Positions 846-33,059 of a stretch of 33,575 nt of DNA are shown here, piece by piece (the stretch's first letter is position 1; every line of letters begins with the position of its first letter). The position numbers were made by a program, and so were the translations under genes. The notes beneath the pieces are model-generated. The model saw only the letters and a program-made list of their open reading frames with translations. It was not told where the DNA came from and did not search any database. The stretch is from the IMG/VR virus record IMGVR_UViG_637000261_000005; one strand, 5' to 3'. The DNA is from a virus (Duplodnaviria > Heunggongvirae > Uroviricota > Caudoviricetes).

Positions 846-1708
846 GCTTAGTCAGCCGTTGTCTCCGGGTGTCGCGTGCGCAGTTGCACGTCATTCTCAG
901 ACGAACCGATGACTGGATGGATGGCCGCCGCAGTCGTCACACTGATGATACGGATGTGCTTCTCCGTATACACCATGTTATCGGAGAGCTGCCCACGTAT
1001 GGTTATCGTCGGGTATGGGCGCTGCTTCGCAGACAGGCAGAACTTGATGGTATGCCAGCGATCAATGCCAAACGTGTTTACCGGATCATGCGCCAGAATG
1101 CGCTGTTGCTTGAGCGAAAGCCTGCTGTACCGCCATCGAAACGGGCACATACAGGCAGAGTGGCCGTGAAAGAAAGCAATCAGCGATGGTGCTCTGACGG
1201 GTTCGAGTTCTGCTGTGATAACGGAGAGAGACTGCGTGTCACGTTCGCGCTGGACTGCTGTGATCGTGAGGCACTGCACTGGGCGGTGACTACCGGCGGC
1301 TTCAACAGTGAAACAGTACTGGACGTCATGCTGGGTGCGGTGGAACGCCGCTTCGGCAACGATCTTCCGTCGTCTCCAGTGGAGTGGCTGACGGATAATG
1401 GTTCATGCTACCGGGCTAATGAAACACGCCAGTTCGCCCGGATGTTGGGACTTGAACCGAAGAACACGGCGGTGCGGAGTCCGGAGAGTAACGGAATAGC
1501 AGAGAGCTTCGTGAAAACGATAAAGCGTGACTACATCAGTATCATGCCCAAACCAGACGGGTTAACGGCAGCAAAGAACCTTGCAGAGGCGTTCGAGCAT
1601 TATAACGAATGGCATCCGCATAGTGCGCTGGGTTATCGCTCGCCACGGGAATATCTGCGGCAGCGGGCTTGTAATGGGTTAAGTGATAACAGATGTCTGG
1701 AAATATAG
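803..1708 (+). CDS. insD: IS2 transposase OrfB (InsD), DDE catalytic domain
   Basis: 301-aa ORF overlapping insC in another frame; sequence recognised as IS2 InsD. Confidence 0.9.
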
Positions 1709-1719
1709 GGGCAAATCCA

Positions 1720-1915
1720 ACGGGATGCCCTCTGATGAGTGAATGGGGGAGGCGTGCTTTGAAGTGAATTTGTGGAAGGCTTCCAGTGTTGAGAAACATA
1801 CGCCGCATTCTAGATTGTTACACTGATAATACTTTTGTCTCACGGTGTTTGAATCATTTTCCGGACGACTGGTGCGGATACGGGCAGATGCGCCACAAAG
1901 CGGACAACGGAACAT
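1720..1915 (-). CDS. ogr: Ogr/Delta-type zinc-finger late-gene activator; native 3' end replaced by IS2 (ORF reads on into IS2 to a stop at 1679)
   Basis: MFRCPLCGASARIRTSRPENDSNTVRQKYYQCNNLECGVCFSTLEAFHKF... has the C-x2-C...C-x4-C pattern and MF-CPLC start of P2 Ogr; the last 11 codons ([11 protein letters not shown]) are reverse-complement IS2 terminus; AGAGAGG RBS before the ATG at 1913-1915. Confidence 0.75.
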
Positions 1916-2010
1916 AGCGACCTCTCTTATTGTAGTGCTTACACTATTCTAGGTTGTATTCTCTAAGATTTAAACATGACTTTCTCTATATAATGATTTT
2001 TAGCATTAGT

Positions 2011-2040
2011 TAATAAACGAACGGCACTCTAAGGAGCGCC
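2011..2040 (-). terminator. Candidate intrinsic terminator after the cargo gene
   Basis: Minus-strand RNA GGCGCUC-CUUA-GAGUGCC hairpin (2023-2040) followed by GUUCGUUUAUU, starting 11 nt after the stop at 2051-2053. Confidence 0.4.
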
Positions 2041-2050
2041 GTCAAAGATA

Positions 2051-5000
2051 TTATTCTGATGTCACTCTTTGCGAGTGAGCTATTTTTAAATCAGCGTTTC
2101 CTTCAAATACTATATTCAACTCATAGTTAAGAGTTAGCTTGAATTTATCTGAGTCACTTTTGATATTCTCTGAAGTGACATTTACTAACTTATTATTATC
2201 ATATTCTCTAATAATTAATTTAGTGAAGTAGTTATCCTTTACCACAAGAGAAAATGGTTGATTAACAAATGGTAAGAAGTAAACCTTACGGGTACCGGAT
2301 TCAGTAGTTATGTTCATAGAGCCATCATCATTTTTTCTCATTAGTTCTCTGAGGTTGGGATTATCGAAAAGCATACGATTATATTGCTGAAAGATCTCTT
2401 TACTCATCACAAGAACCAGTTTGCCAGCCAAGTCAGCAGATGATTTTATGTGATCAATCAACATATTGAAATCTTCTATTACGGTATGTTGCGAACAGCC
2501 AGTGCTAAATAAATTTGAAAGTATTATTCTCTGGATGTCCTTGAGAATTAAGTCTGCTTGAATATCACCTTCATTGATATAAGGGATGGATTCTATTCCT
2601 TCGGCATACGGTTCTTTATCTATCTTAATAGATATCTTATGTTTTGTGAAACAATCGCTAGCCTGCTTAAAATCAATAGATTTGAAAAGTGAAAGAGGGA
2701 GCGTTTTCTTGATGCGTTTACGAAGATGTTCTGATGTTTTACGTGCAGTGCTATCTAGTCGATGTACATCTATGGCAGCATCCTGAAGTCTCATATCAAG
2801 ATCTTTCTTTAGCATGTTAATATGCTCTTGAAGCAACTTTCTTAAGTTTTCTTTTTTTGTTTGGAGATCGTCCAATGTTAAAGTCAGCTTGATTTTAGTG
2901 TATTCGATGGAGTTACAAATTTTTGATAATACTCCAATGAGTCGTTGCTTCTCACGATATGTTATATAGTTGTTTTCTATTGCTTCTTTTATTTCTTTTG
3001 ATACGCTATCGTTCTTTTTAGAAAAAATTAATAATAGCTGAACCCATGATTGTTCCATATCAATAAATCCACAGTCAAAAACATTACTGTAAACTCTGCC
3101 CATCACCATGTCTGTTTTATCATAGTCACGTAAACGCCTTGCTAAACTATTCATCCACCCATTGTGCTCCATATTTTCAGACCATGTCCACAGGCAGATT
3201 CTAATTAATATCTTGATTAGTTGGCTTGCATTATCAATTTCTTCAGTGGGAGTTTCATATCCACCGGTTTGGTCAATAAGTTTACCCTCTAAAATAAGTT
3301 TAATGTAATGTGTCATTAGTTTGTCAGAAGTATTGATTCTTGATGTCAGATAAAGACATGTGCATATACGCATGTCAGTCAACGCATTTATGATGGCAAT
3401 ATTGAACCACTCTCTGTCTGAATTGAAGTTTAGTTTTTTGGATATGAAAAAACCCGGGTTAAAAAGCTGGCCTTTGTAACTGTATTTTTCTACCGAATGG
3501 CTGTCAATATTCATTGAGTGCTGCCATCGGTTAATAAGATCGACGGCTGTATCAATAGTAGAAGGATCGCGAGTCTGTGTTGCATCAATAATCATCGATG
3601 GAAGTTCTTGTAGTTGCGTTTTGCAAAATAATTCAAATAAATCTGAATTCTCTGTATTGCAGAAACGAAAGTTTATGCTTTCTTGATATTGCTCCCAAAC
3701 AGTGATATAGGTTCTTAATATACGATTATAACGTGAACGAAGCGAGGCATTTAAGAGTGATTGGTTGTTTCGGAACCATTCTGTTAATATTGACCATTGT
3801 GAACGAGTAATTCCCATATAGATACAAAGTTCATTGCTGATAAGATGTTTTCTATTATTGATAATACGCACTCCGCTCCAAAGACATAATTCAAAAAATC
3901 TTTCAGAAAGATTAATTTTATCCATGGAATTATTTGATATTTTATAAACTTCATCTGAAAACTCATATTGAAAACTCCGTTCAAATAATTCTGTAGTGAT
4001 CAGTAAGAAGTTATTGTTGGTATTATCATCTTGAAAAAAATACAAATCGCAGAGATTATTAAAGTTATTAATTAATGCAGAGATAGCATTGTCAAAACTA
4101 ATGAGATCAGAATCCCGCAGATACATATACGTATCTGCTGTTATAGCCTGCATTGTAAGACTTACGGAAAAATCTCCTCCTTTAATCGGAGCCCTATAAA
4201 AACATTGCTTAAGTATTTTTATTAATAAGCTGTCTGGTTTGATATTTTTAACGCTAAAAAGTATCTTACCCGTGGATTCTGTTTCTTTTGTACGATTATC
4301 ACCAATGACAAATGACGCAAAATGATTCTTCTTTTTTAGTTGGTAATTAATAAGATTAAGAGTAAGTTGAAAAGGACGGTGATATAAACTTAACTCATCT
4401 TCCTTAGAATAACTGCTAGCCACAGATATGTATTCTCCTTTGTAATCGGCTTGCGTGATTTCTAAATTTGAATAGTTATGTTTTTGATAGATAGGGTATA
4501 ACCTAAGCTTGGCTGAGATTTTGTTACAAATATGGGGCATTACTATTTCGAAGGCAATGTATCGCTTTATAATTATTTGCCGTTTTACATCATCAAGAAT
4601 TTCAAGACTCACGATAAAGAACCAAATAGAAAGAACTATGTTTATCAAAAGCCATAATATGCTGATTAGACAAGCTATACCATAAAGATAACTTCCAAAG
4701 ACAGTTTTAATTAGTACACTGAGAAGTATAAATCCTGATAAGAAAAGCCCGCTGAGTCCAGCAAGCATGAATCCTGAGTAACGCTGATAAGCAGTTTGGG
4801 CTATTTTTCTATCTGCCTTTTTTTGGAATAAGACACTTACTAAACCTATAACAAGGGGGTATACAATACCAATAATTGTCAATTGGCCACTTAAAATGGT
4901 TGTTTGCCATTCGGTTAATGAATGCCTAAACGGGAAATAATGTAAAAGATTATTTTTTATAAATAATTCGTTTAAATATCCAACATAAAGTAGTACAAAT

Positions 5001-5170
5001 GAAAAAGCTGATATGCAAAGTACTGATTTAACCGGTGAGGATGTTAATCTTATGATGTTTTTTTCAATAAAATTCCATTTTAAATTCGAATAAAATGGAT
5101 TTTTAACCATTTTATTACGAACATAGTTCTTTGCTAAAATCTCTGTTGCACTTAAAAATTGTCCAATCAT
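2051..5170 (-). CDS. Hypothetical 1039-aa membrane-anchored protein; four N-terminal transmembrane helices plus ~850-aa soluble region; AT-rich cargo gene of unknown function
   Basis: Uninterrupted 3120-nt ORF in conspicuously AT-rich DNA where stops are frequent; hydrophobic segments about aa 48-69, 90-115, 131-155, 161-191; K/E/L-rich probable coiled coil about aa 760-825; no Walker A, RT, TOPRIM or nuclease motifs seen. Confidence 0.85.
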   Translation of the reverse strand: MIGQFLSATEILAKNYVRNKMVKNPFYSNLKWNFIEKNIIRLTSSPVKSVLCISAFSFVLLYVGYLNELFIKNNLLHYFPFRHSLTEWQTTILSGQLTIIGIVYPLVIGLVSVLFQKKADRKIAQTAYQRYSGFMLAGLSGLFLSGFILLSVLIKTVFGSYLYGIACLISILWLLINIVLSIWFFIVSLEILDDVKRQIIIKRYIAFEIVMPHICNKISAKLRLYPIYQKHNYSNLEITQADYKGEYISVASSYSKEDELSLYHRPFQLTLNLINYQLKKKNHFASFVIGDNRTKETESTGKILFSVKNIKPDSLLIKILKQCFYRAPIKGGDFSVSLTMQAITADTYMYLRDSDLISFDNAISALINNFNNLCDLYFFQDDNTNNNFLLITTELFERSFQYEFSDEVYKISNNSMDKINLSERFFELCLWSGVRIINNRKHLISNELCIYMGITRSQWSILTEWFRNNQSLLNASLRSRYNRILRTYITVWEQYQESINFRFCNTENSDLFELFCKTQLQELPSMIIDATQTRDPSTIDTAVDLINRWQHSMNIDSHSVEKYSYKGQLFNPGFFISKKLNFNSDREWFNIAIINALTDMRICTCLYLTSRINTSDKLMTHYIKLILEGKLIDQTGGYETPTEEIDNASQLIKILIRICLWTWSENMEHNGWMNSLARRLRDYDKTDMVMGRVYSNVFDCGFIDMEQSWVQLLLIFSKKNDSVSKEIKEAIENNYITYREKQRLIGVLSKICNSIEYTKIKLTLTLDDLQTKKENLRKLLQEHINMLKKDLDMRLQDAAIDVHRLDSTARKTSEHLRKRIKKTLPLSLFKSIDFKQASDCFTKHKISIKIDKEPYAEGIESIPYINEGDIQADLILKDIQRIILSNLFSTGCSQHTVIEDFNMLIDHIKSSADLAGKLVLVMSKEIFQQYNRMLFDNPNLRELMRKNDDGSMNITTESGTRKVYFLPFVNQPFSLVVKDNYFTKLIIREYDNNKLVNVTSENIKSDSDKFKLTLNYELNIVFEGNADLKIAHSQRVTSE

Positions 5171-5260
5171 GAATTACTCTTCTATAAAGTGTGGGTCTAC
5201 TAACTAAACTGGAACTTTTACTATTGAGTCATATTCCCTTGGACGGGATGGACTGTGAAG

Positions 5261-5266
5261 ATTATA
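5261..5266 (-). promoter_or_regulatory. Candidate -10 element (TATAAT) in the AT-rich leader of the cargo gene
   Basis: Perfect TATAAT on minus strand about 90 nt upstream of the ATG at 5168-5170; no convincing -35 hexamer; GAAGAG Shine-Dalgarno before the start. Confidence 0.3.
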
Positions 5267-5418
5267 CTTGACTTCCTCTGTCATGTGGGAAAAACATCCG
5301 TATTATTGTTAGCATCTGGTTGATGCCCCAACCTCTGACATCTAGTGGGCTGATACATTATCTTTTGTTCTTACTGTCAGTGTAGAAGCACATCTCAAAA
5401 ATAATATTTTTAAGAGAT

Positions 5419-6528
5419 TTATTCTGTTTCTGCTATCCATTCCGGGATTTTTGCTTCAAGTTCAAGCTGCGTGGTAAAGCCGCTGTTATCAATGGTGTGC
5501 TCGGCTTTTGCAATAGTCCAGTCCTGATAATCAATCTCGCTTTTAAAGCCTGTCACTGTGCCATGCATTTCGGGATAGAGTTCTGCACGACCACGCGCCA
5601 GCGTGATGGAGAATGATGCGGCTCCGCGTTGTAGCTGCTGCCACTTTGCCGCCGCTGCGCGTCTTGCTGCCTGCTCGTTCTGATAAGTCTTGCGTAACAC
5701 AAACACGTTGCCTTCCGCACCTTCCATATAGTCGCCTTCCCGACTGCTGCTTTTCTCCTTTTTGGGTTTTGGCGGTTTGCGGCGTTTCACGCTGACTTTT
5801 TTCTTTTTCCCGTAATTAAGATCAAGCCAGTAGGCGCGTACCCCCGTATACGCCTCGCGGTCAGCAATGCGGAACTGATGGCGATCGCCGCTGCTGCGTG
5901 TAATGGCGAACGAGGGCAACGGCTGCCCCTGTGCGTTCACGCCACCACCTGGCATGATGAATAACAGATTGCCGCTTTTTACCGTGGCGATTGCTCCCAG
6001 CATTTCCGCCATGCGCGTAAGAAAGGACATGTCGCTTTCTTCGGTCTGGTCGGCGTGGTCGATTTCGATATCCATCAGCATTTCGCTGATTTGCGGTTTC
6101 AGACCGTACCGATGAGTGATGGCGGATACCACACGCTCAACGGTCACATCATGCCAGGACACCTCACGTTTAACGTTAAATTCATCCCGAAAATCTGCGC
6201 TTCTGGCTGAAACAGTCAGCCTGTCCGGCGGTCCTTCGTGAGCGATTTCATCAACAATGTAAGTGCCTTTTTCTGTCAGCGGTTCCCCTTTCCAGCCAAT
6301 GAGAACCGTCAGACGCGCGCCCCGTGGCGGTAGCTGCAACTGACCATCCGCATCATCCAGCGTGATGGTGAGCTGGTCCGCCTCAAATCCCCGGTTGTCG
6401 GTCAGTTACAGGCTCATCAGGCGCTCCGCCACGCCTGACAGCGTTTTACCCTCCGAGAGAATATCAAAATCCGGCATTTTCACGGGGGCCGTGCCCTGAC
6501 TGAGCAATTGCATGGTGGTGTCGGTCAT
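5419..6528 (-). pseudogene. D: P2 gpD-like tail protein gene interrupted by an in-frame TAA at codon 41 (6406-6408)
   Basis: ATG at 6526-6528 with GGAGGGAG RBS; 40 codons (MTDTTMQLLSQGTAPVKMPDFDILSEGKTLSGVAERLMSL), then TAA, then the same frame continues LTDNRGFEADQLTITLDDADGQLQLPPRGARLTVLIGW... to 5419. Confidence 0.85.
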
Positions 6529-12278: not shown

Positions 12279-12308
12279 AAAACCGCTAATGGTCAGATTA
12301 GCGGTTTT
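12279..12308. terminator. Bidirectional palindromic terminator shared by convergent U and invertase genes
   Basis: Perfect 12-bp inverted repeat AAAACCGCTAAT/ATTAGCGGTTTT with 6-bp spacer; overlaps the invertase stop codon (12298-12300). Confidence 0.5.
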
Positions 12309-12915
12309 CATTTTCCTGAGTCTGCCCGGTTGTTTCTTCAGTCTGTATATCGCCTACAGGGTGATAACGATAAATCGTCGATGTGCCAATGCCGTAAATT
12401 ATTGCCAGTTGTTTTCTGTCGTGCCCGTTTTTGATTAGCCTTGCTATTTGCTCATGCTGTTCTTTTGTCAGCTTCGGTCGACGTCCGCCTGTGCGCCCCC
12501 TTGCGCGCGCTGCCGCCAGCCCGGCCAGTGTACGTTCAACAATTAATTCACGTTCCATTTCAGCCAGGGCACCCATCACGTGGAAGAAAAAACGCCCCAT
12601 TGGAGAAGATGTGTCTATGCTGTCGGTCAGACTGCGAAAATTAATCCCTCGCTCCCGTAGTTCCCCGACGAGAGAAATCAGATGTTTCATGCTTCGCCCG
12701 AGGCGATCCAGTTTCCAGACAACCAGCGTGTCACCTTTTTGAAGGCGCTTTAAAGCGCGTTTTAATCCCGGTCGGTCTGTCTTTGTCCCGCTTAATTTAT
12801 CTTCAAATATTTGTTCACATCCTGCACAAACAAGAGCGTTTTGTTGCAGGTCTGTATTCTGGTCATTTGTTGATACCCTTACATAGCCAATCAGCACACT
12901 GAATCTCCCGTCCAA
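12298..12915 (-). CDS. pin: Serine DNA invertase (Pin/Gin/Hin/Cin family); likely true start GTG at 12895-12897
   Basis: LIGYVRVSTNDQNTDLQ...GDTLVVWKLDRLGRSMKHL...FFFHVMGALAEMERELIVERT... carries the catalytic Ser motif and conserved blocks of Pin/Gin; sits immediately outside crossover site 1. Confidence 0.9.
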   Translation of the reverse strand: MDGRFSVLIGYVRVSTNDQNTDLQQNALVCAGCEQIFEDKLSGTKTDRPGLKRALKRLQKGDTLVVWKLDRLGRSMKHLISLVGELRERGINFRSLTDSIDTSSPMGRFFFHVMGALAEMERELIVERTLAGLAAARARGRTGGRRPKLTKEQHEQIARLIKNGHDRKQLAIIYGIGTSTIYRYHPVGDIQTEETTGQTQENENR

Positions 12916-13675: not shown

Positions 13676-14209
13676 ATGATGCACTTAAAAAACATTACTG
13701 CTGGCAACCCTAAAACAAAAGAGCAATACCAGCTAACAAAGCAATTTAACATCAAATGGCTTTATTCAGATGATGGAAAAAACTGGTATGAGGAACAAAA
13801 GAATTTCCAGCCAGACACTTTGAAAATGGTCTATTACCATAACGGCGTTATTATTTGTATTGAAAAGGATGTTTCAGCAATTAATCCGGAAGGCGCAAGC
13901 GTCGTTGAATTACCTGATATTACAGCAAATCGCCGGGCTGATATTTCGGGGAAATGGTTGTTCAAAGATGGCGTAGTGATAAAGCGAACTTATACCGAGG
14001 AAGAGCAGAGGCAACAAGCGGAAAATGAAAAGCAAAGCCTGTTGCAACTTGTCAGGGATAAAACCCAGCTATGGGACTCACAGCTACGGCTGGGCATCAT
14101 TTCCGACGAGAATAAACAAAAATTAACCGAGTGGATGCTCTATGCGCAGAAAGTCGAATCTACAGACACCTCCAGCCTGCCAGTAACGTTTCCCGAACAA
14201 CCAGAATGA
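13676..14209 (+). CDS. Tail fibre assembly chaperone, alternative copy
   Basis: 177-aa [25 protein letters not shown]...; paralogous to the minus-strand copy at 14238-14766. Confidence 0.8.
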   Translation: MMHLKNITAGNPKTKEQYQLTKQFNIKWLYSDDGKNWYEEQKNFQPDTLKMVYYHNGVIICIEKDVSAINPEGASVVELPDITANRRADISGKWLFKDGVVIKRTYTEEEQRQQAENEKQSLLQLVRDKTQLWDSQLRLGIISDENKQKLTEWMLYAQKVESTDTSSLPVTFPEQPE

Positions 14210-14237: not shown

Positions 14238-14766
14238 TTACTCAGGCTTTTGTGGCCATTCGGGATTTGCTGTATCCACACGGCTGACCAGAACGCTGTA
14301 GCGTTCCCATGACTCCAGTCGTGTGCGTTCCTCATCCATCGCCATATTCAGCCTGACAGCGCGTTCCAGTGGCTGAATAACGCTTTCAGCTTCAGAAAGC
14401 AACGCGACCTTTTGTGATTCGGCCTGTTGTTGCTGTTCGTCTGCTGTATAAATCCGCTTAACCACAGTTCCGTCCTTAAACATCCACTTCCCTGAATCAT
14501 CGGCACGACGATTGGCTGTTATATCTGGAATCTCAACGACACTAAAGCCTTCGGGATTAAGTGTTGGGGCATCTTTGGTTATGGCAACAATAATATTATT
14601 TTCGTCGTATACAATCTTTATGGTGTCGTCCTGAAAGTTATTTACTTCCTCATACCAGTTTTTACCGTCTTCGGACCATAACCAGATAACATCAAAATTC
14701 TTTGTTAGCTGATATTGTTCTTTTGTTTTTGGATTTCCGGACTTAATATTTTTTAATATGCTGCAT
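14238..14766 (-). CDS. Tail fibre assembly chaperone (P2 gpG-like), currently expressed copy; N-terminus disturbed by 1-bp insertion in a T6 run (14749-14754)
   Basis: ATG at 14764-14766, 3 nt after the H stop, reads MQHIKKY-stop; removing one A restores [22 protein letters not shown]..., parallel to the alternative copy. The ORF track frame extends upstream to 14846. Confidence 0.7.
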
Positions 14767-14769
14767 AAT

Positions 14770-16920
14770 TTACACCTGTGCGACGTTATACCATGTGCCA
14801 TTGATGTATTTTTGTATTGGTCTGAAGATGGCTTCATCATCGCCATCTACTTCACCAATGATTCTTAATCCGGTAATTGCGTGTCCGGCTTTTTCATAAC
14901 GACCACCACGCGCCATCAATTGAACAACACGCGTACCCAGGCGAACATCTTTTACATAGCGTGAATCAAAATTCCCCCAGTTGCTGGGCTGTATCTGACC
15001 GTTAACAGAAAATATTACCGAGTTATCTGTATTTCGCTGGCTATAGAAATGCCATCCTGCCTCATTGCCTAACTCTGCAACTACTGGACGGGTTGAAGCA
15101 CCCCATAAATTAAACGTTGCATTCTTTGTGGAGTTGTTGGAGCTGGATAGCGTGAATTTTTTACCATCCCCGGCCTGAATATTTTTAAAAGCAATAGCCA
15201 CTCCATTCTGAAAGCGGAATACACGCTGACTATTAGCATAAACATCCAGAATACCGTCTCCATTCTGTTTAAATCCGGTGTCATTATCACCAAGAACAAT
15301 AGAGCTACCACCTAACGCATTCGTCGAACCAACTCCAAGACTGCCATTAATGACAGCATTAACAAGAATATTTAGTGCATCCCATTTCAGCGTCATCAGG
15401 TCTTTTGTTGTGGTGCTCTGGCGGCTTCTCCATTTGAAATATTCATTGCCGTTGTCGCCTGTTTCAAACCACATGTATGAATCAGTGTCACCATCGGCAT
15501 CATTTTTAAATCCAATCTTCGCCCAGTCAGTATTTCGAATCCAGGCAAGGATTGAGTCATTTTCAAAAGTAAGCCCACCGGACAAGGTATCGCCATTTTT
15601 TTGCACGGCGTTACCAGCCCTGTTTACCGTTTCCTGTAAACCGAGGTATTCGATAACGGCAGCAACGGTCGATTTCGCAAGAATATCCCGCCCGACTTTT
15701 GTCAGGGTTGCCAGGCTGGCGACATCATTCCCCGTAAAATACGGAAACCTGTCTGCCGCAGTAGCAAGCCCGGCCAGCGCCGTCAGGGTGGCATCTTTCG
15801 GTTGCTTACCCGCAAGCGCGTTAGTCATGGTGGTCGCAAAATTCGGGGCGTTTCCCAGCGCCGCCGCTAACTCGTTCAGCGTATTCAGTGCGTCAGGTGA
15901 CGAATCTACAAGGGCGGCAATCGCAGCCATAACGAAAGCCGTGCTTGCGATTTGGGTATTATTCGTTCCCTGTCGCGCAGCTGGCGTTGTTGGCGTTCCG
16001 GTCAGCGCAGGACTGTTTAAGGGCGCTTTCTTGTTCGTTTCATCCATTACCGCCTTAACCGCTTTCGATGTCGCGGCCAGTGTTTCAGACGTGCTGTTGG
16101 TGGCACTACTGAGCTGGACTATCCCTTTTTGTGCCGTCGTGGCGTCCTGAGCGGTATATTTTGCGTTAGCAAGGTCATACGCGGCCTTTACTGCTTTCGG
16201 CGTTGCAGCCTGCGTTTCAGACGTGCTGTTGGTGGCGCTACTGAGCTGGACAAGGCCTTTTCGCGTCGTGCTGGCATCCTGCGCAGTATATTTACCGTTA
16301 GCAAGATCATACGCGGCCTTTACTGCTTTCGGCGTTGCAGCCTGCGTTTCAGACACGCTGTTAGTGGCGCTACTGAGTTGAACAAAGCCTTTTGCGGTCA
16401 GCGAGGCGTCCGGGTGACGTCGTGACTGTTCATGCTCTTTCAGTTTGTCATCCACGTAATCCACTGTGGCCATCACCATGGTGTTGTCCACGGTAAGCGC
16501 CACGGTGGCAGTGCTGGATACGGTCAGAATGGTGCGAAATGTTTGTGCACGACCGGACCCTTCGGCAACGGCTGGCTTGTAACTTTCGGCAGTATTTCCC
16601 ACCGCGATTAAATCGCCGTGCTCATCAAATACACCAATTTCCCGGATCCAGAATCCGCCCGTTTCAGGAGGAATAACCAGCTCCGCAATAATGCGGTTCT
16701 GATGTGTTGCGTCCAGGATGACGCGATTAACAGTATGTCGCCACACCTCATGCACCAGACGGGTCTGCTTACTGTCTGGTGTGGGCAACGTGCCGCCACC
16801 GTCGCCCACGGCCATATGAGTCAGGCGGACAGGCTTACCATCTGGCGCGGCTACCTGAGCTAATTTTTTTGCACCCGTATCGGTGATAATGGTTTTAAAT
16901 TTTCGTGTTGTGGTACTCAT
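14770..16920 (-). CDS. H: Tail fibre protein (P2 gpH-like); C-terminal part (14770 to about 15643) lies inside the invertible segment
   Basis: 716-aa ORF with tandem fibre repeats and C-terminal ...[11 protein letters not shown]; crossover site 2 is within codons ...VIEYLGLQE.... Confidence 0.9.
15631..15656. other. hix/gix-like inversion crossover site 2, inside gene H
   Basis: TTCCTGTAAACCGAGGTATTCGATAA; reverse complement TTATCGAATACCTCGGTTTACAGGAA matches site 1. Confidence 0.7.
16036..16401 (-). repeat. Three tandem ~132-bp (44-aa) repeats within H
   Basis: Protein repeats KG[24 protein letters not shown]...DLAN-x-KYTAQDA at H residues about 174-295; near-identical nucleotide copies visible. 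Confidence 0.6.
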
Positions 16921-23274: not shown

Positions 23275-24326
23275 TTAGCTGTCGGCGAACTTCAGGCCAG
23301 TAACCATCGCGCACTTGCCATAGTCTTCAACGACATAAGCGTCATTGATGGACTGGTAGGTGGCGATGCGGTTGTATTCCGGCTCGTCTTTCATCAGGCG
23401 ACGCATTGAACCTTTCTGCCAGTAAATCGACAGGTTGTTGAACGAGGTGATCAGCATCGTTGCATCCGGGAAGAACGGCGCAAGGAACACGCCCAGCCCG
23501 CCAATGGTGCGCGATGACAGGATGAGCTGCCCGGCGAGTAATTCCGCATTGGGATTCTGGCCGCTGATGCTGTTCAGCACGGGCAGACGCAGCGAGTTAA
23601 ACAGGTTGCGCCCCATAATCACCACGAGGTCGTCAGCTTCCTTGTGCCATTCATCCAGCAGGGATGAACGCGCGTCCTGTACCAGTGCATCAGCGTTCGC
23701 ATACTTACCCGCGTGCGCCACGGTGTTGTCCATGTTGCGGGAGGTCAGCGTCACGTCATTCATAACGCGTTCGCTGGCGTCGGTTCTGATGTGCTCCAGC
23801 CAGCCCACGTTAACGTCCTGAAGCAGCTTGTTGGTGCTGAAGTTGGACTCATCCGCGTGAGACGTGCCGTTGAAACCGATCATGATGCGGTCAAGCGCCA
23901 CCTGTCGGGCAATCTGTGCGCTGATGCGGGACTGAAAATCAGGGTGTGCCGACCAGGCATCAAGCTGCGGATACGAAATAAACGTGTCGTAGTTCACCTG
24001 TTCACACTGATATTTGCGGTTTTTCAGATCAACCACGTTATTCGGGTTACGGCGTTTTGTGCCGTCATAACTGGTATTCGTGCGCGCAATCGGTCCTGTG
24101 GTATCCAGGAGGATTTTTTCGCCTTTCTGGTCGGTCACGCCGATCACGTTATTTTTTTCGTAAATTCGGTACTTTCCTTTGAGGTGTTTTCAAAACGCTG
24201 CTGCACCGCGGGTTCCACGGTAAATCGCGACACCAGTGCAGATACCGGGATATTATTAAGCGACACCTGCTGCGCCATATAGCAACCCAGCTTGTTGCGG
24301 GTAATATCTGACATCACCAGATTCAT
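23275..24326 (-). pseudogene. N: Major capsid protein (P2 gpN-like) with a frameshift near 24148-24158
   Basis: N-terminal 60 codons (...RFTVEPAVQQRFENTSKESTEFTKKIT-stop) and the 290-aa body (NNVIGVTDQKGEKILL...) are in different frames, joined at an A/T homopolymer (T7 at 24152-24158); one added base restores ...EFTKKINVIGVT.... Confidence 0.8.
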
Positions 24327-28628: not shown

Positions 28629-29219
28629 TCAGGTGTTATTTTTATCTGTCGTCAGTGGGCTAAACCATCCACAATTTACATCGCATGACTGATGCGTTCT
28701 GTCCTCGTGTTTCTCCTGCCACAATGCTTTTCCGCCAGCCTTTATGATGGCTCTTTCAACATCCCGCTCGTATCGCAAGGGCTGAAATACGTCATTAATG
28801 AAATATTCGCTTATGTCCGGAAGCGATACTGCAAAATTATTTGTTTGTTGCGCCGTCCTGCTATGCAGCAAAGCGGCATGCTTTAATGCGTCCTGTGCTT
28901 TCTGGAATTTAAGTGCATAGTCAGTGGCGATTTTTTCCAGTTCAGCGATTCGGTTGTCTTTGGTTTCCAGCCAATCAAGTAGCGCCAATACTTCAGGATC
29001 CCCGACATCCAACACTGTTACGCGTGATTTTTCATAATGTTCGTCAGCAAGAGTTCGGCCAATTTTGAAATCTCCATCATCACCATAACCGGAGCAGGCA
29101 TAAACAACCTGTGCTCCAGATATTCGCTGAATTGACATTTCCTCGCCGCAAATAGGGCATTTCGGTACTGGCACAGGTGAATAACGTTCACGTAATGCCT
29201 GATAGTTGATTTCGCTCAT
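28629..29219 (-). CDS. Hypothetical 196-aa protein with N-terminal zinc-ribbon-like motif
   Basis: AAGGAG RBS 7 nt before the ATG; CPICGEEMS...YACSGYG cysteine pairs, central coiled-coil-like region; no family recognised. Confidence 0.65.
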   Translation of the reverse strand: MSEINYQALRERYSPVPVPKCPICGEEMSIQRISGAQVVYACSGYGDDGDFKIGRTLADEHYEKSRVTVLDVGDPEVLALLDWLETKDNRIAELEKIATDYALKFQKAQDALKHAALLHSRTAQQTNNFAVSLPDISEYFINDVFQPLRYERDVERAIIKAGGKALWQEKHEDRTHQSCDVNCGWFSPLTTDKNNT

Positions 29220-30212: not shown

Positions 30213-31381
<1,169 letters not shown>

Positions 31382-32168: not shown

Positions 32169-33059
32169 TCAGGCTGCCAGATCATCGTTTCCGATGGAAG
32201 CATAATAAGCTTTTTCTGCTTCTGCCGGAGGGATGTGGCCCAGCCTTTCCAGCAATCGTCGATTATTATACCAGTCCACCCACGTGAGTGTGGCCAGTTC
32301 CACTTCTGCACGGTTTTTCCAGCTCTTACGGTGTATTACCTCCGCTTTGTAAAGACCATTGATGCTCTCCGCCATCGCGTTGTCATACGAGTCGCCTGTA
32401 CTTCCTGTTGATGCCAGTAATCCGGCTTCCTTAAGCCGCTGTGTGTAGGCCAGCGATACATACTGAGAACCTTTATCACTGTGATGGACCGTGCCGGACG
32501 GTCGACGGGCCCATAACGCCTGCTCCAGTGCATCCAGCACGAATGTCGTCTCCATGGACGATGAGACCCGCCACCCCACGATGTATCCGGCAAACACATC
32601 AATGATGAACGCCACATAGACGAAGCCCTGCCATGTGCTGACGTAAGTAAAATCAGCCACCCACAGCTGGTCAGGTCGTTCTGCCACGAACTGACGGTTT
32701 ACGCGGTCGCCTGCGGCAACGGCTTTCCGGCTGATGGTCGTACGGACCTTTTTACCCCGGAGAACACCGGCAAGTCCCATAACCGCCATGAGACGTGCCA
32801 CAGTGCATCTGGCCACTCTGATGCCTTCCCGTAACAACTGACGCCAGACTTTACGCACACCGTATACCTGATGATTCCCATCGTATACGCGCAGTATCTC
32901 TTTCTTCAGCCAGTCATCGCGCTGCGCACGGGCACTGCGTTTATCAGGATGATGTCGCTGTTGCTGACAGTGGTAATACGTTGACGGGGCAATATGTAGT
33001 TCACTGCATACCGGTCCGACCCCGTACAGCTTACGCAGCTTATCCAGCAGTGGCATCAC
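32169..33059 (-). CDS. IS629-like transposase OrfB
   Basis: 296-aa ORF with DDE domain. Confidence 0.85.

Follow-up and report, generated by a model that had tools for sequence, protein, structure and literature searches.

The stretch of DNA analysed here, called the window in the following, is the 33,575-nt virus record IMGVR_UViG_637000261_000005 (Caudoviricetes), and the subject of this report is a cargo gene located between gene D and the ogr gene of the prophage in it. The block that carries this gene (1916-5418) is exactly the span from the D stop (5419) to the ogr start (1915), and within it a complete minus-strand open reading frame (ORF) begins with ATG, runs uninterrupted over 2051..5170 and encodes 1039 amino acids (aa), as had been read earlier from the letters alone. 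The cargo ORF has 32.8% G+C (29.7% at third codon positions, GC3), against 53.1% in D, 53.7% in FI, 56.7% in T and 51.3% in the whole window, and G+C stays at 0.28-0.38 in sliding windows over 1950-5400; the AT-rich island amid phage genes above 50% G+C, which the original prediction had estimated by eye, is thus given by computation as 32.8% against flanks of 53-57%. A chance open frame of 1039 codons, which the same prediction considered very unlikely, is excluded because stop codons number 53-123 per 1167 codons in each of the five other frames of 1916-5418, against 11 in the frame of the ORF, all of them outside the ORF. Altogether the proposal of a horizontally acquired cargo module from a low-G+C source held up in every part that is computationally testable. 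The features of the block are as follows.

5171..5418, minus strand: AT-rich leader with TATAAT and the Shine-Dalgarno sequence GAAGAG, putative promoter
2051..5170, minus strand: cargo ORF of 1039 aa, predicted membrane-anchored member of a large unannotated family of about 1030-1150 aa
4586..5038, minus strand: four transmembrane (TM) helices, aa 45-195, most conserved part of the family
3986..4480, minus strand: alpha/beta domain, aa 231-395, no recognised fold match
2891..3985, minus strand: all-alpha solenoid (HEAT/ARM-like repeats), aa 396-760, with near-invariant W492, E493, D544, W549, N595, D599 and R657, scattered
3071..3112, minus strand: loop with near-invariant G691-R692-x-Y694, aa 687-700, family consensus MVSGRxYSG, predicted local distance difference test (pLDDT) below 50
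2699..2890, minus strand: two long K/E/L-rich helices (766-797 and 802-820), aa 761-824, preceding the capsid-fold domain
2066..2698, minus strand: HK97 fold (phage major capsid / encapsulin) in the predicted structure, aa 825-1035
2020..2043, minus strand: terminator-like hairpin of 10 bp with 6 G-C pairs and a weak T-run

The block had also been described as self-contained in its expression signals. A TATAAT at 5266-5261 (minus strand) in the leader, a GAAGAG at 5182-5177, six nt 5' of the ATG, and a 10-bp stem with six G-C pairs at 2043-2020 (minus strand), eight nt past the stop of the ORF, are all present as claimed; on the other side, the U-run (T-run) after the terminator-like stem, CGTTTATTAA, is weak, and no good -35 element was found at 16-18 nt from the TATAAT. 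Moreover, 26 promoter-like sites are found in the AT-rich block where 16 are expected, and since such hexamers are common in AT-rich DNA, the promoter and terminator of the cargo gene are putative, plausible rather than demonstrated. Set against an E. coli copy with 99.8% identity (L001), the allele in the window shows four nonsynonymous and zero synonymous differences (codons 239, 489, 718 and 961), which may reflect relaxed constraint or an impaired allele.

As to the identity of the protein, profile searches with Pfam, NCBIfam and PADLOC-DB v2.0.0 gave no family at E<=1, the PADLOC models covering PifA, RexAB, Kiwa, Zorya, CBASS effectors and the PDC candidates; from PHROGs the single match was phrog_25965, spanning 37 residues at E=0.015 and treated by us as noise. 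Nine distant family members had no match in Pfam either, 42 diverse members had a single chance-level match in PADLOC (PD-T7-3, E=0.005), and a profile of the whole family had no meaningful match among PDB sequences. The accessions WP_049143931, WP_264716223, WP_013362823 and WP_023909028 were not found in the searchable literature or in the DefensePredictor supplements. By these sequence comparisons the family is new and the protein fits no known one, in agreement with the earlier statement that it lacks a characterised family, defence or other. The family itself is large. The 183 homologues that a word-based search returned belong without exception to Enterobacterales, with a Pantoea/Erwinia clade at 50-71% identity and a common clade of 1069-aa proteins at about 27%; an exhaustive profile search extended this to 502 cluster representatives at E<=1e-3, mostly of 1030-1150 aa, of which 150 are at E<=1e-30. 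The full architecture, from the TM domain to the C-terminus, is present in 105 of the 146 top representatives (those re-detected by a local profile search). The 90% cluster of the cargo protein holds 692 member sequences, the named members read being from Shigella and E. coli, and further members occur in species genomes of Pseudoalteromonas, Shewanella, Alteromonas, Psychromonas, Vibrio, Oceanisphaera, Psychrobacter, Aliikangiella, Bermanella and Desulforhopalus. Among 72,556 plasmids in PLSDB, 379 carry a family member, and 218 of these are conjugative.

The RefSeq product name 'MFS transporter' (WP_264716223.1), given by the Prokaryotic Genome Annotation Pipeline (PGAP), is rejected here, since the protein has four TM helices instead of 12 in two six-helix halves, about 850 aa of soluble sequence, and no Pfam (MFS_1, Sugar_tr) or NCBIfam MFS match at E<=1; PGAP carries this name over to hundreds of copies of the cargo protein. 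For the 1069-aa clade, a UniRef cluster bears the name 'nicotinate-nucleotide adenylyltransferase', but Pfam records no domain in these proteins. A version apparently split into two genes (L120, 808 aa and 248 aa) was rejected as well, because both parts lie in the same frame with a single TAG between them (2605-2616), which is probably a nonsense mutation or a sequencing or assembly error.

The N-terminal part of the protein contains four hydrophobic helices (aa 45-71, 90-118, 131-162 and 156-196), which bears out the four helices seen earlier by eye. Lysines and arginines number seven in the N-terminus, five in loop 2 and four after TM4, against two in loop 1 and zero in loop 3, and the positive-inside rule then gives an N-in/C-in topology, by which all soluble domains, including the solenoid and the capsid fold, would be cytoplasmic. 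The TM domain is the best conserved part, with a mean pairwise identity of 0.64 versus 0.30-0.33 for the coiled-coil and capsid-fold parts, which are the least conserved, and its invariant or near-invariant residues (Q96, P105, Y128, S132, G138, S140, W173 and N177) are polar or helix-shaping; F184 is conserved as well. Such a gradient of conservation would be expected if a constant effector were coupled to a recognition domain that diversifies. Walker A, HExxH and YxDD motifs are all absent from the protein, consistent with the original prediction as far as Walker A and YxDD are concerned, and no catalytic motif or enzyme fold was found in the soluble part, so that the membrane domain is the sole candidate effector. 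The TM bundle gave no informative structural match.

The AlphaFold2 model, built from an alignment of 36 sequences, has a mean pLDDT of 81.2 and a predicted template modelling score (pTM) of 0.67, and a model of the C-terminal part has a pLDDT of 88.1. Its layout is a set of N-terminal helices, four long TM helices (46-190), an alpha/beta part, an all-alpha part, two long helices and a C-terminal alpha/beta part; the two long helices, 766-797 and 802-820, account for the K/E/L-rich helical region noted before at aa 760-825. The G691-R692-x-Y694 loop, modelled as disordered, is probably functional or flexible. The C-terminal domain holds the most informative feature of the protein, one that could not be seen from the letters alone: every one of its top 60 structural matches is an HK97-fold shell protein. 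Among these are encapsulins, PfV, T4 gp24, lambda gpE and HK97 gp5, as well as capsid proteins of phage-inducible chromosomal islands (PICI) and Staphylococcus aureus pathogenicity islands (SaPI), Ccm, and the floor domains of herpesvirus capsid proteins; the full-length model gives these matches again, and so, less strongly, does Foldseek. As modelled, the domain is an HK97 fold. To our knowledge, the architecture of four TM helices, a solenoid and an HK97 fold is unprecedented, and no published precedent was found for a prokaryotic immune or membrane protein built on this fold.

Other identities were considered and rejected. The protein is not a phage major capsid protein, for it has no Pfam or PHROG capsid match, its gene stands alone in varied contexts and not in a head module among portal, terminase and scaffold or protease genes, and the prophage has its own capsid gene. 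Nor does it fit an encapsulin, which is a soluble shell protein encoded together with a cargo enzyme that has a targeting peptide, being membrane-anchored, 1039 aa long and without a conserved neighbour. Sequence-level mimicry of the prophage's own P2-family capsid protein was dismissed at a BLASTP E of 1.1. In comparison with the HK97-fold shell proteins (phage major capsid proteins, encapsulins and PfV), the fold is shared with no sequence relationship and no Pfam capsid match, the domain is fused here to about 820 upstream residues including the four TM helices, and the gene lies outside a virion module, without a portal, terminase or cargo partner.

The position of the gene is informative in its own right. 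Among 80 viral contigs encoding a close relative of D, 74 also contain ogr, and in these sister prophages the two genes are 44-46 bp apart in 42 cases, whereas the other 32 carry inserts of 1.0-4.0 kb, in 20 distinct lengths, with 33-43% G+C and mostly one gene. Strong PADLOC matches were obtained for four of the 18 distinct cargo modules tested, namely SIR2+HerA (E of 3e-155 and 8e-253), a PifA-like KAP NTPase (1e-64, sister prophage L037), PDC-S06 (2e-277) and PDC-S31 (4e-27), and no significant PADLOC match was found for some thirteen other cargo proteins of the slot. In E. coli genomes the same place is taken by a PIN-domain protein, a DUF3800 protein or other small ORFs. The D-ogr junction, suggested before as a variable cargo slot, is therefore a genuine one and a defence hotspot; it is unnamed in the survey literature examined, where the word 'ogr' is absent. 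Besides, at least a dozen single-gene cargos there (229-932 aa, 33-43% G+C) have no PADLOC match, the inserts concerned including L059, L054, L041, L036, L069, L075, L091, L051 and L022. L059, for example, has a 932-aa protein and L084 a radical-SAM gene pair, and such unmatched cargos are further candidate defence genes.

Beyond this prophage, the surroundings of family members were compared at 23 loci by all-against-all BLASTP of the flanking ORFs. No conserved partner gene emerged, since no neighbour family is common to more than three of the 23 loci, and the description of the block as a self-contained single-gene module agrees with this. Only one arrangement recurs: in three marine species (Aliikangiella marina and two Psychromonas genomes), the gene sits between hsdS and hsdR of a type I restriction-modification (R-M) operon; the R-M-embedded members are at L108 8001-11159, L110 8001-10916 and L115 8001-12524. 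Other members are found in a P4-like primase island with HNH, FRG and DUF3800 genes, in a Serratia island with DUF3800, HNH_2 and TIR_2 genes, beside a KAP NTPase and an integrase in Pectobacterium, and beside PLD and PIN genes on a Pantoea plasmid. On plasmids of incompatibility group F (IncF), some lie beside an AAA_23/AAA_21-type ATPase and a RES toxin, others beside an S-4TM effector, an AAA ATPase, vapBC and a DUF3800 gene. The G+C of the gene is below that of its flanks in nearly all of 21 other loci (in Psychrobacter, 0.28 versus 0.52), and the foreign, low-G+C character claimed for the cargo holds there as in the window. Conserved chromosomal contexts of ordinary G+C, named in the original prediction as a sign to the contrary, were not met with, for the chromosomal copies stand in variable places with G+C below their flanks. 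Thus the family recurs in hotspots beside or in place of known systems, which is the genomic criterion for a defence gene.

From this context the protein is probably an anti-phage, or more generally an anti-mobile-element, defence protein. The reading that we favour is a mobile single-gene defence module in the D-ogr hotspot, which joins a capsid-fold bait to a membrane effector, and we give this statement as a whole a probability of about 0.4. Its mechanistic part, a bait coupled to a membrane effector, is by itself a tentative proposal that we hold at somewhat lower confidence. The protein would be held in the inner membrane by the four conserved TM helices, with about 850 residues in the cytoplasm, and the capsid-fold domain would serve as a bait or mimic engaging phage head assembly, either the capsomers of the major capsid protein or its binders such as scaffold, portal or protease. 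This engagement would cluster or rearrange the protein, and the conserved four-TM domain might then permeabilise or depolarise the membrane, leading to abortive infection; as an alternative or added outcome, nascent procapsids could be tethered and poisoned. In its most far-reaching form, namely that bacteria and their mobile elements have co-opted the HK97 capsid fold as an immune recognition module, a membrane-anchored capsid decoy that joins or caps the assembling head of an invader and so brings about membrane failure or assembly arrest, the idea is speculative, and we would sooner doubt it than assert it.

Known systems resemble this proposal in parts. PifA of the F plasmid is a single large membrane-associated protein encoded by a mobile genetic element, and its exclusion of T7, for which the T7 major capsid protein is in part the trigger, leaves the membrane leaky in the end. 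In sister prophage L037 the D-ogr slot is filled by a PifA-like gene; however, PifA is a KAP-type P-loop NTPase, while the cargo protein has neither a Walker A motif nor a PADLOC PifA match. In RexAB, in Kiwa (KwaA), and in CBASS, Pycsar and S-4TM systems, the membrane is compromised by an executioner made of a few bundled TM helices, four of them in RexB and KwaA, but the cargo protein has no sequence match to their PADLOC models, and those systems are multi-gene or signal-activated, whereas here a putative sensor and effector would be in one chain. Ccm of SaPIbov5 is a capsid-fold protein of a satellite that redirects the capsid assembly of its helper; in contrast to the cargo protein, it is soluble, about 260 aa long, a part of the small capsid and not membrane-anchored, and it serves satellite packaging and not host defence. 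Fv1 and enJS56A1 are co-opted capsid (gag) proteins, and immunity is keyed to the viral capsid with them as it is with CapRel SJ46 and Lit/Gol. However, CapRel and Lit have no capsid fold, and Fv1 and enJS56A1 are eukaryotic and retroviral.

Of the alternatives, the one that survives best also takes the protein as a defence protein, and sees in the HK97 domain only a self-assembly scaffold, whose pentamer- or hexamer-like rings or lattice would organise the TM helices into a channel, while the sensor would be the solenoid, the alpha/beta domain, or else the membrane domain, responding to DNA injection or to damage of the envelope. Self-assembly is an intrinsic property of HK97-fold proteins, all structural matches of the C-terminal domain are shell formers, the near-invariant residues cluster in the TM and solenoid parts and not in the capsid-fold domain, and short forms without that domain exist, all of which fits; on the other hand, one would expect conservation in a pure scaffold, and it is the capsid-fold domain that varies most, and we regard this alternative as unlikely. 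A second alternative is a non-abortive assembly poison, in which the anchor merely tethers the protein and the capsid fold co-assembles with the capsid protein of the incoming phage, trapping or capping procapsids at the membrane in a dominant-negative way so that the cell survives. The absence of an enzymatic effector would suit it, and there are precedents in Ccm, a capsid-fold protein interfering with helper capsid assembly and found among the structural matches, and in the capsid-derived restriction factors Fv1 and enJS56A1 of animals. But the TM domain is the best conserved part, with invariant polar residues (Q96, S132, S140 and N177), which is more than a passive anchor needs, and such a poison is in our judgement quite unlikely.

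A factor of superinfection exclusion, entry exclusion or plasmid competition, acting at the inner membrane on incoming DNA, would explain the abundance on 379 PLSDB plasmids, 218 of them conjugative, and would be natural for an inner-membrane protein encoded by a prophage. We consider it improbable, as about 1040 aa is far larger than the known superinfection exclusion (Sie) or Imm proteins, the bulk of the protein, capsid fold included, is predicted to be cytoplasmic, and embedding in type I R-M operons fits an intracellular defence better. A non-immune accessory membrane protein, be it a transporter, an addiction or toxin module, or a membrane-anchored encapsulin-like compartment protein, is very improbable in view of the four TM helices where a transporter of the MFS type has 12, the lack of any Pfam or NCBIfam MFS match at E<=1 and of a conserved neighbouring cargo or partner gene, the patchy low-G+C distribution on mobile elements, and the recurrence of the family in defence slots.

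Several points weigh against the capsid-bait module that we favour. The HK97 assignment comes from AlphaFold models built on 36 sequences, the C-terminal domain shares 4-12% sequence identity with capsid proteins, and no capsid protein in the PDB was found with a profile made from its sequence. Short forms ending just before the capsid-fold domain make up about nine of the 146 family representatives. One of them, of 830 aa (L119, 5001-7493), directly follows hsdS-Abi_2-hsdR and precedes a tRNA-like sequence, and because its stop codon is followed by that sequence, it is a genuine natural short form; the capsid-fold domain must therefore be dispensable for at least some members. As for the defence role, hotspots also carry non-defence cargo and guilt by association can mislead, and several marine homologues stand alone between housekeeping genes without a recognisable defence island. 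A tblastn search of 50,697 sequenced phage genomes gave no match to the protein, and PADLOC v2.0.0 dates from 2023. Finally, C961R (window 2288-2290) replaces a cysteine kept in at least 90% of alignment A1, and as this goes together with a decayed prophage, the allele in the window may itself be impaired.

The prophage around the cargo is P88-like and not P2 itself, the phage to which the original prediction had referred: the phage genes are 95-98% identical to those of Xuanwuvirus genomes (P88-like Peduoviridae), for example Citrobacter phage Shae_phiSM and P884B11. Where complete E. coli genomes carry this type of prophage, it adjoins ihfA and its genes read hok/gef, ogr, cargo, D, FI; the cargo ORF is found at this place in only 5 of 5426 complete E. 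coli genomes. The copy in the window is a decayed remnant, in which the cargo ORF is nevertheless intact. The features that concern its state are the following.

5419..6528, minus strand: right border of the slot, formed by gene D (late control / tail), here a pseudogene because codon 41 (6406-6408) is an in-frame stop
1679..1915, minus strand: left border of the slot, formed by the ogr/Delta-like zinc-finger gene, in which an IS3-family insertion with the junction near 1720 takes the place of the final ~21 codons
480-1720: IS3-family element in the 3' end of ogr, with orfA at 480-845 and orfB at 803-1708
12298-12915, minus strand: serine invertase (Resolvase and HTH_7)
13676-14209, plus strand: confirmed tail-fibre assembly gene, adjoining the serine invertase
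14238-14846, minus strand: opposite-strand ORF in the same neighbourhood
23278-24147, minus strand: the prophage's own P2-family capsid gene, the ORF match beginning at Pfam profile position 50 of 327

Codon 41 of D is Ser in the intact homologue of NZ_CP134716, and D is otherwise colinear and without indels. The same truncated D annotation (801 nt and a partial ORF) is found in many E. coli genomes, so that a defective lineage of the prophage seems to be widespread. The insertion in ogr, which belongs to an IS3-family insertion sequence (IS), removes the hok/gef gene and the ihfA-side end present in intact copies, and the capsid ORF lacks about the first 50 profile positions and is therefore N-terminally truncated or disrupted. 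Beyond the portal gene there are an Ead/Ea22-like gene and two further IS3-family transposases (28629-29219, 30213-31052 and 32169-33059), and no early or replication region is visible in the window, which makes the record the remnant of a prophage residing in a genome that is IS-rich and Shigella-like. Relative to D, the FI-FII-E-T-U tail block has the opposite orientation to that in P2. The invertase, the tail-fibre assembly gene and the opposite-strand ORF together look like an invertible host-range segment.

The finding would matter in several respects. The D-ogr junction of P88-like prophages is now defined as a productive hotspot, with at least a dozen more cargo genes in it that have no PADLOC match. 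If the protein is defensive, it adds a widespread system that annotation misses or mislabels as an MFS transporter, and 379 PLSDB plasmids, many Shigella and E. coli prophages and marine Gammaproteobacteria would be concerned. Should the sensor be its capsid-fold domain, prokaryotes would here for the first time be seen to build immunity from a structural fold of the virus itself, and the long-standing question of how defence recognises conserved phage structural proteins would become directly testable. In that case capsid-derived restriction factors such as Fv1 would have their first counterpart among prokaryotes, and the family would stand as a new class of sensor-effector in one chain, spread widely over the plasmids and prophages of enterobacteria.

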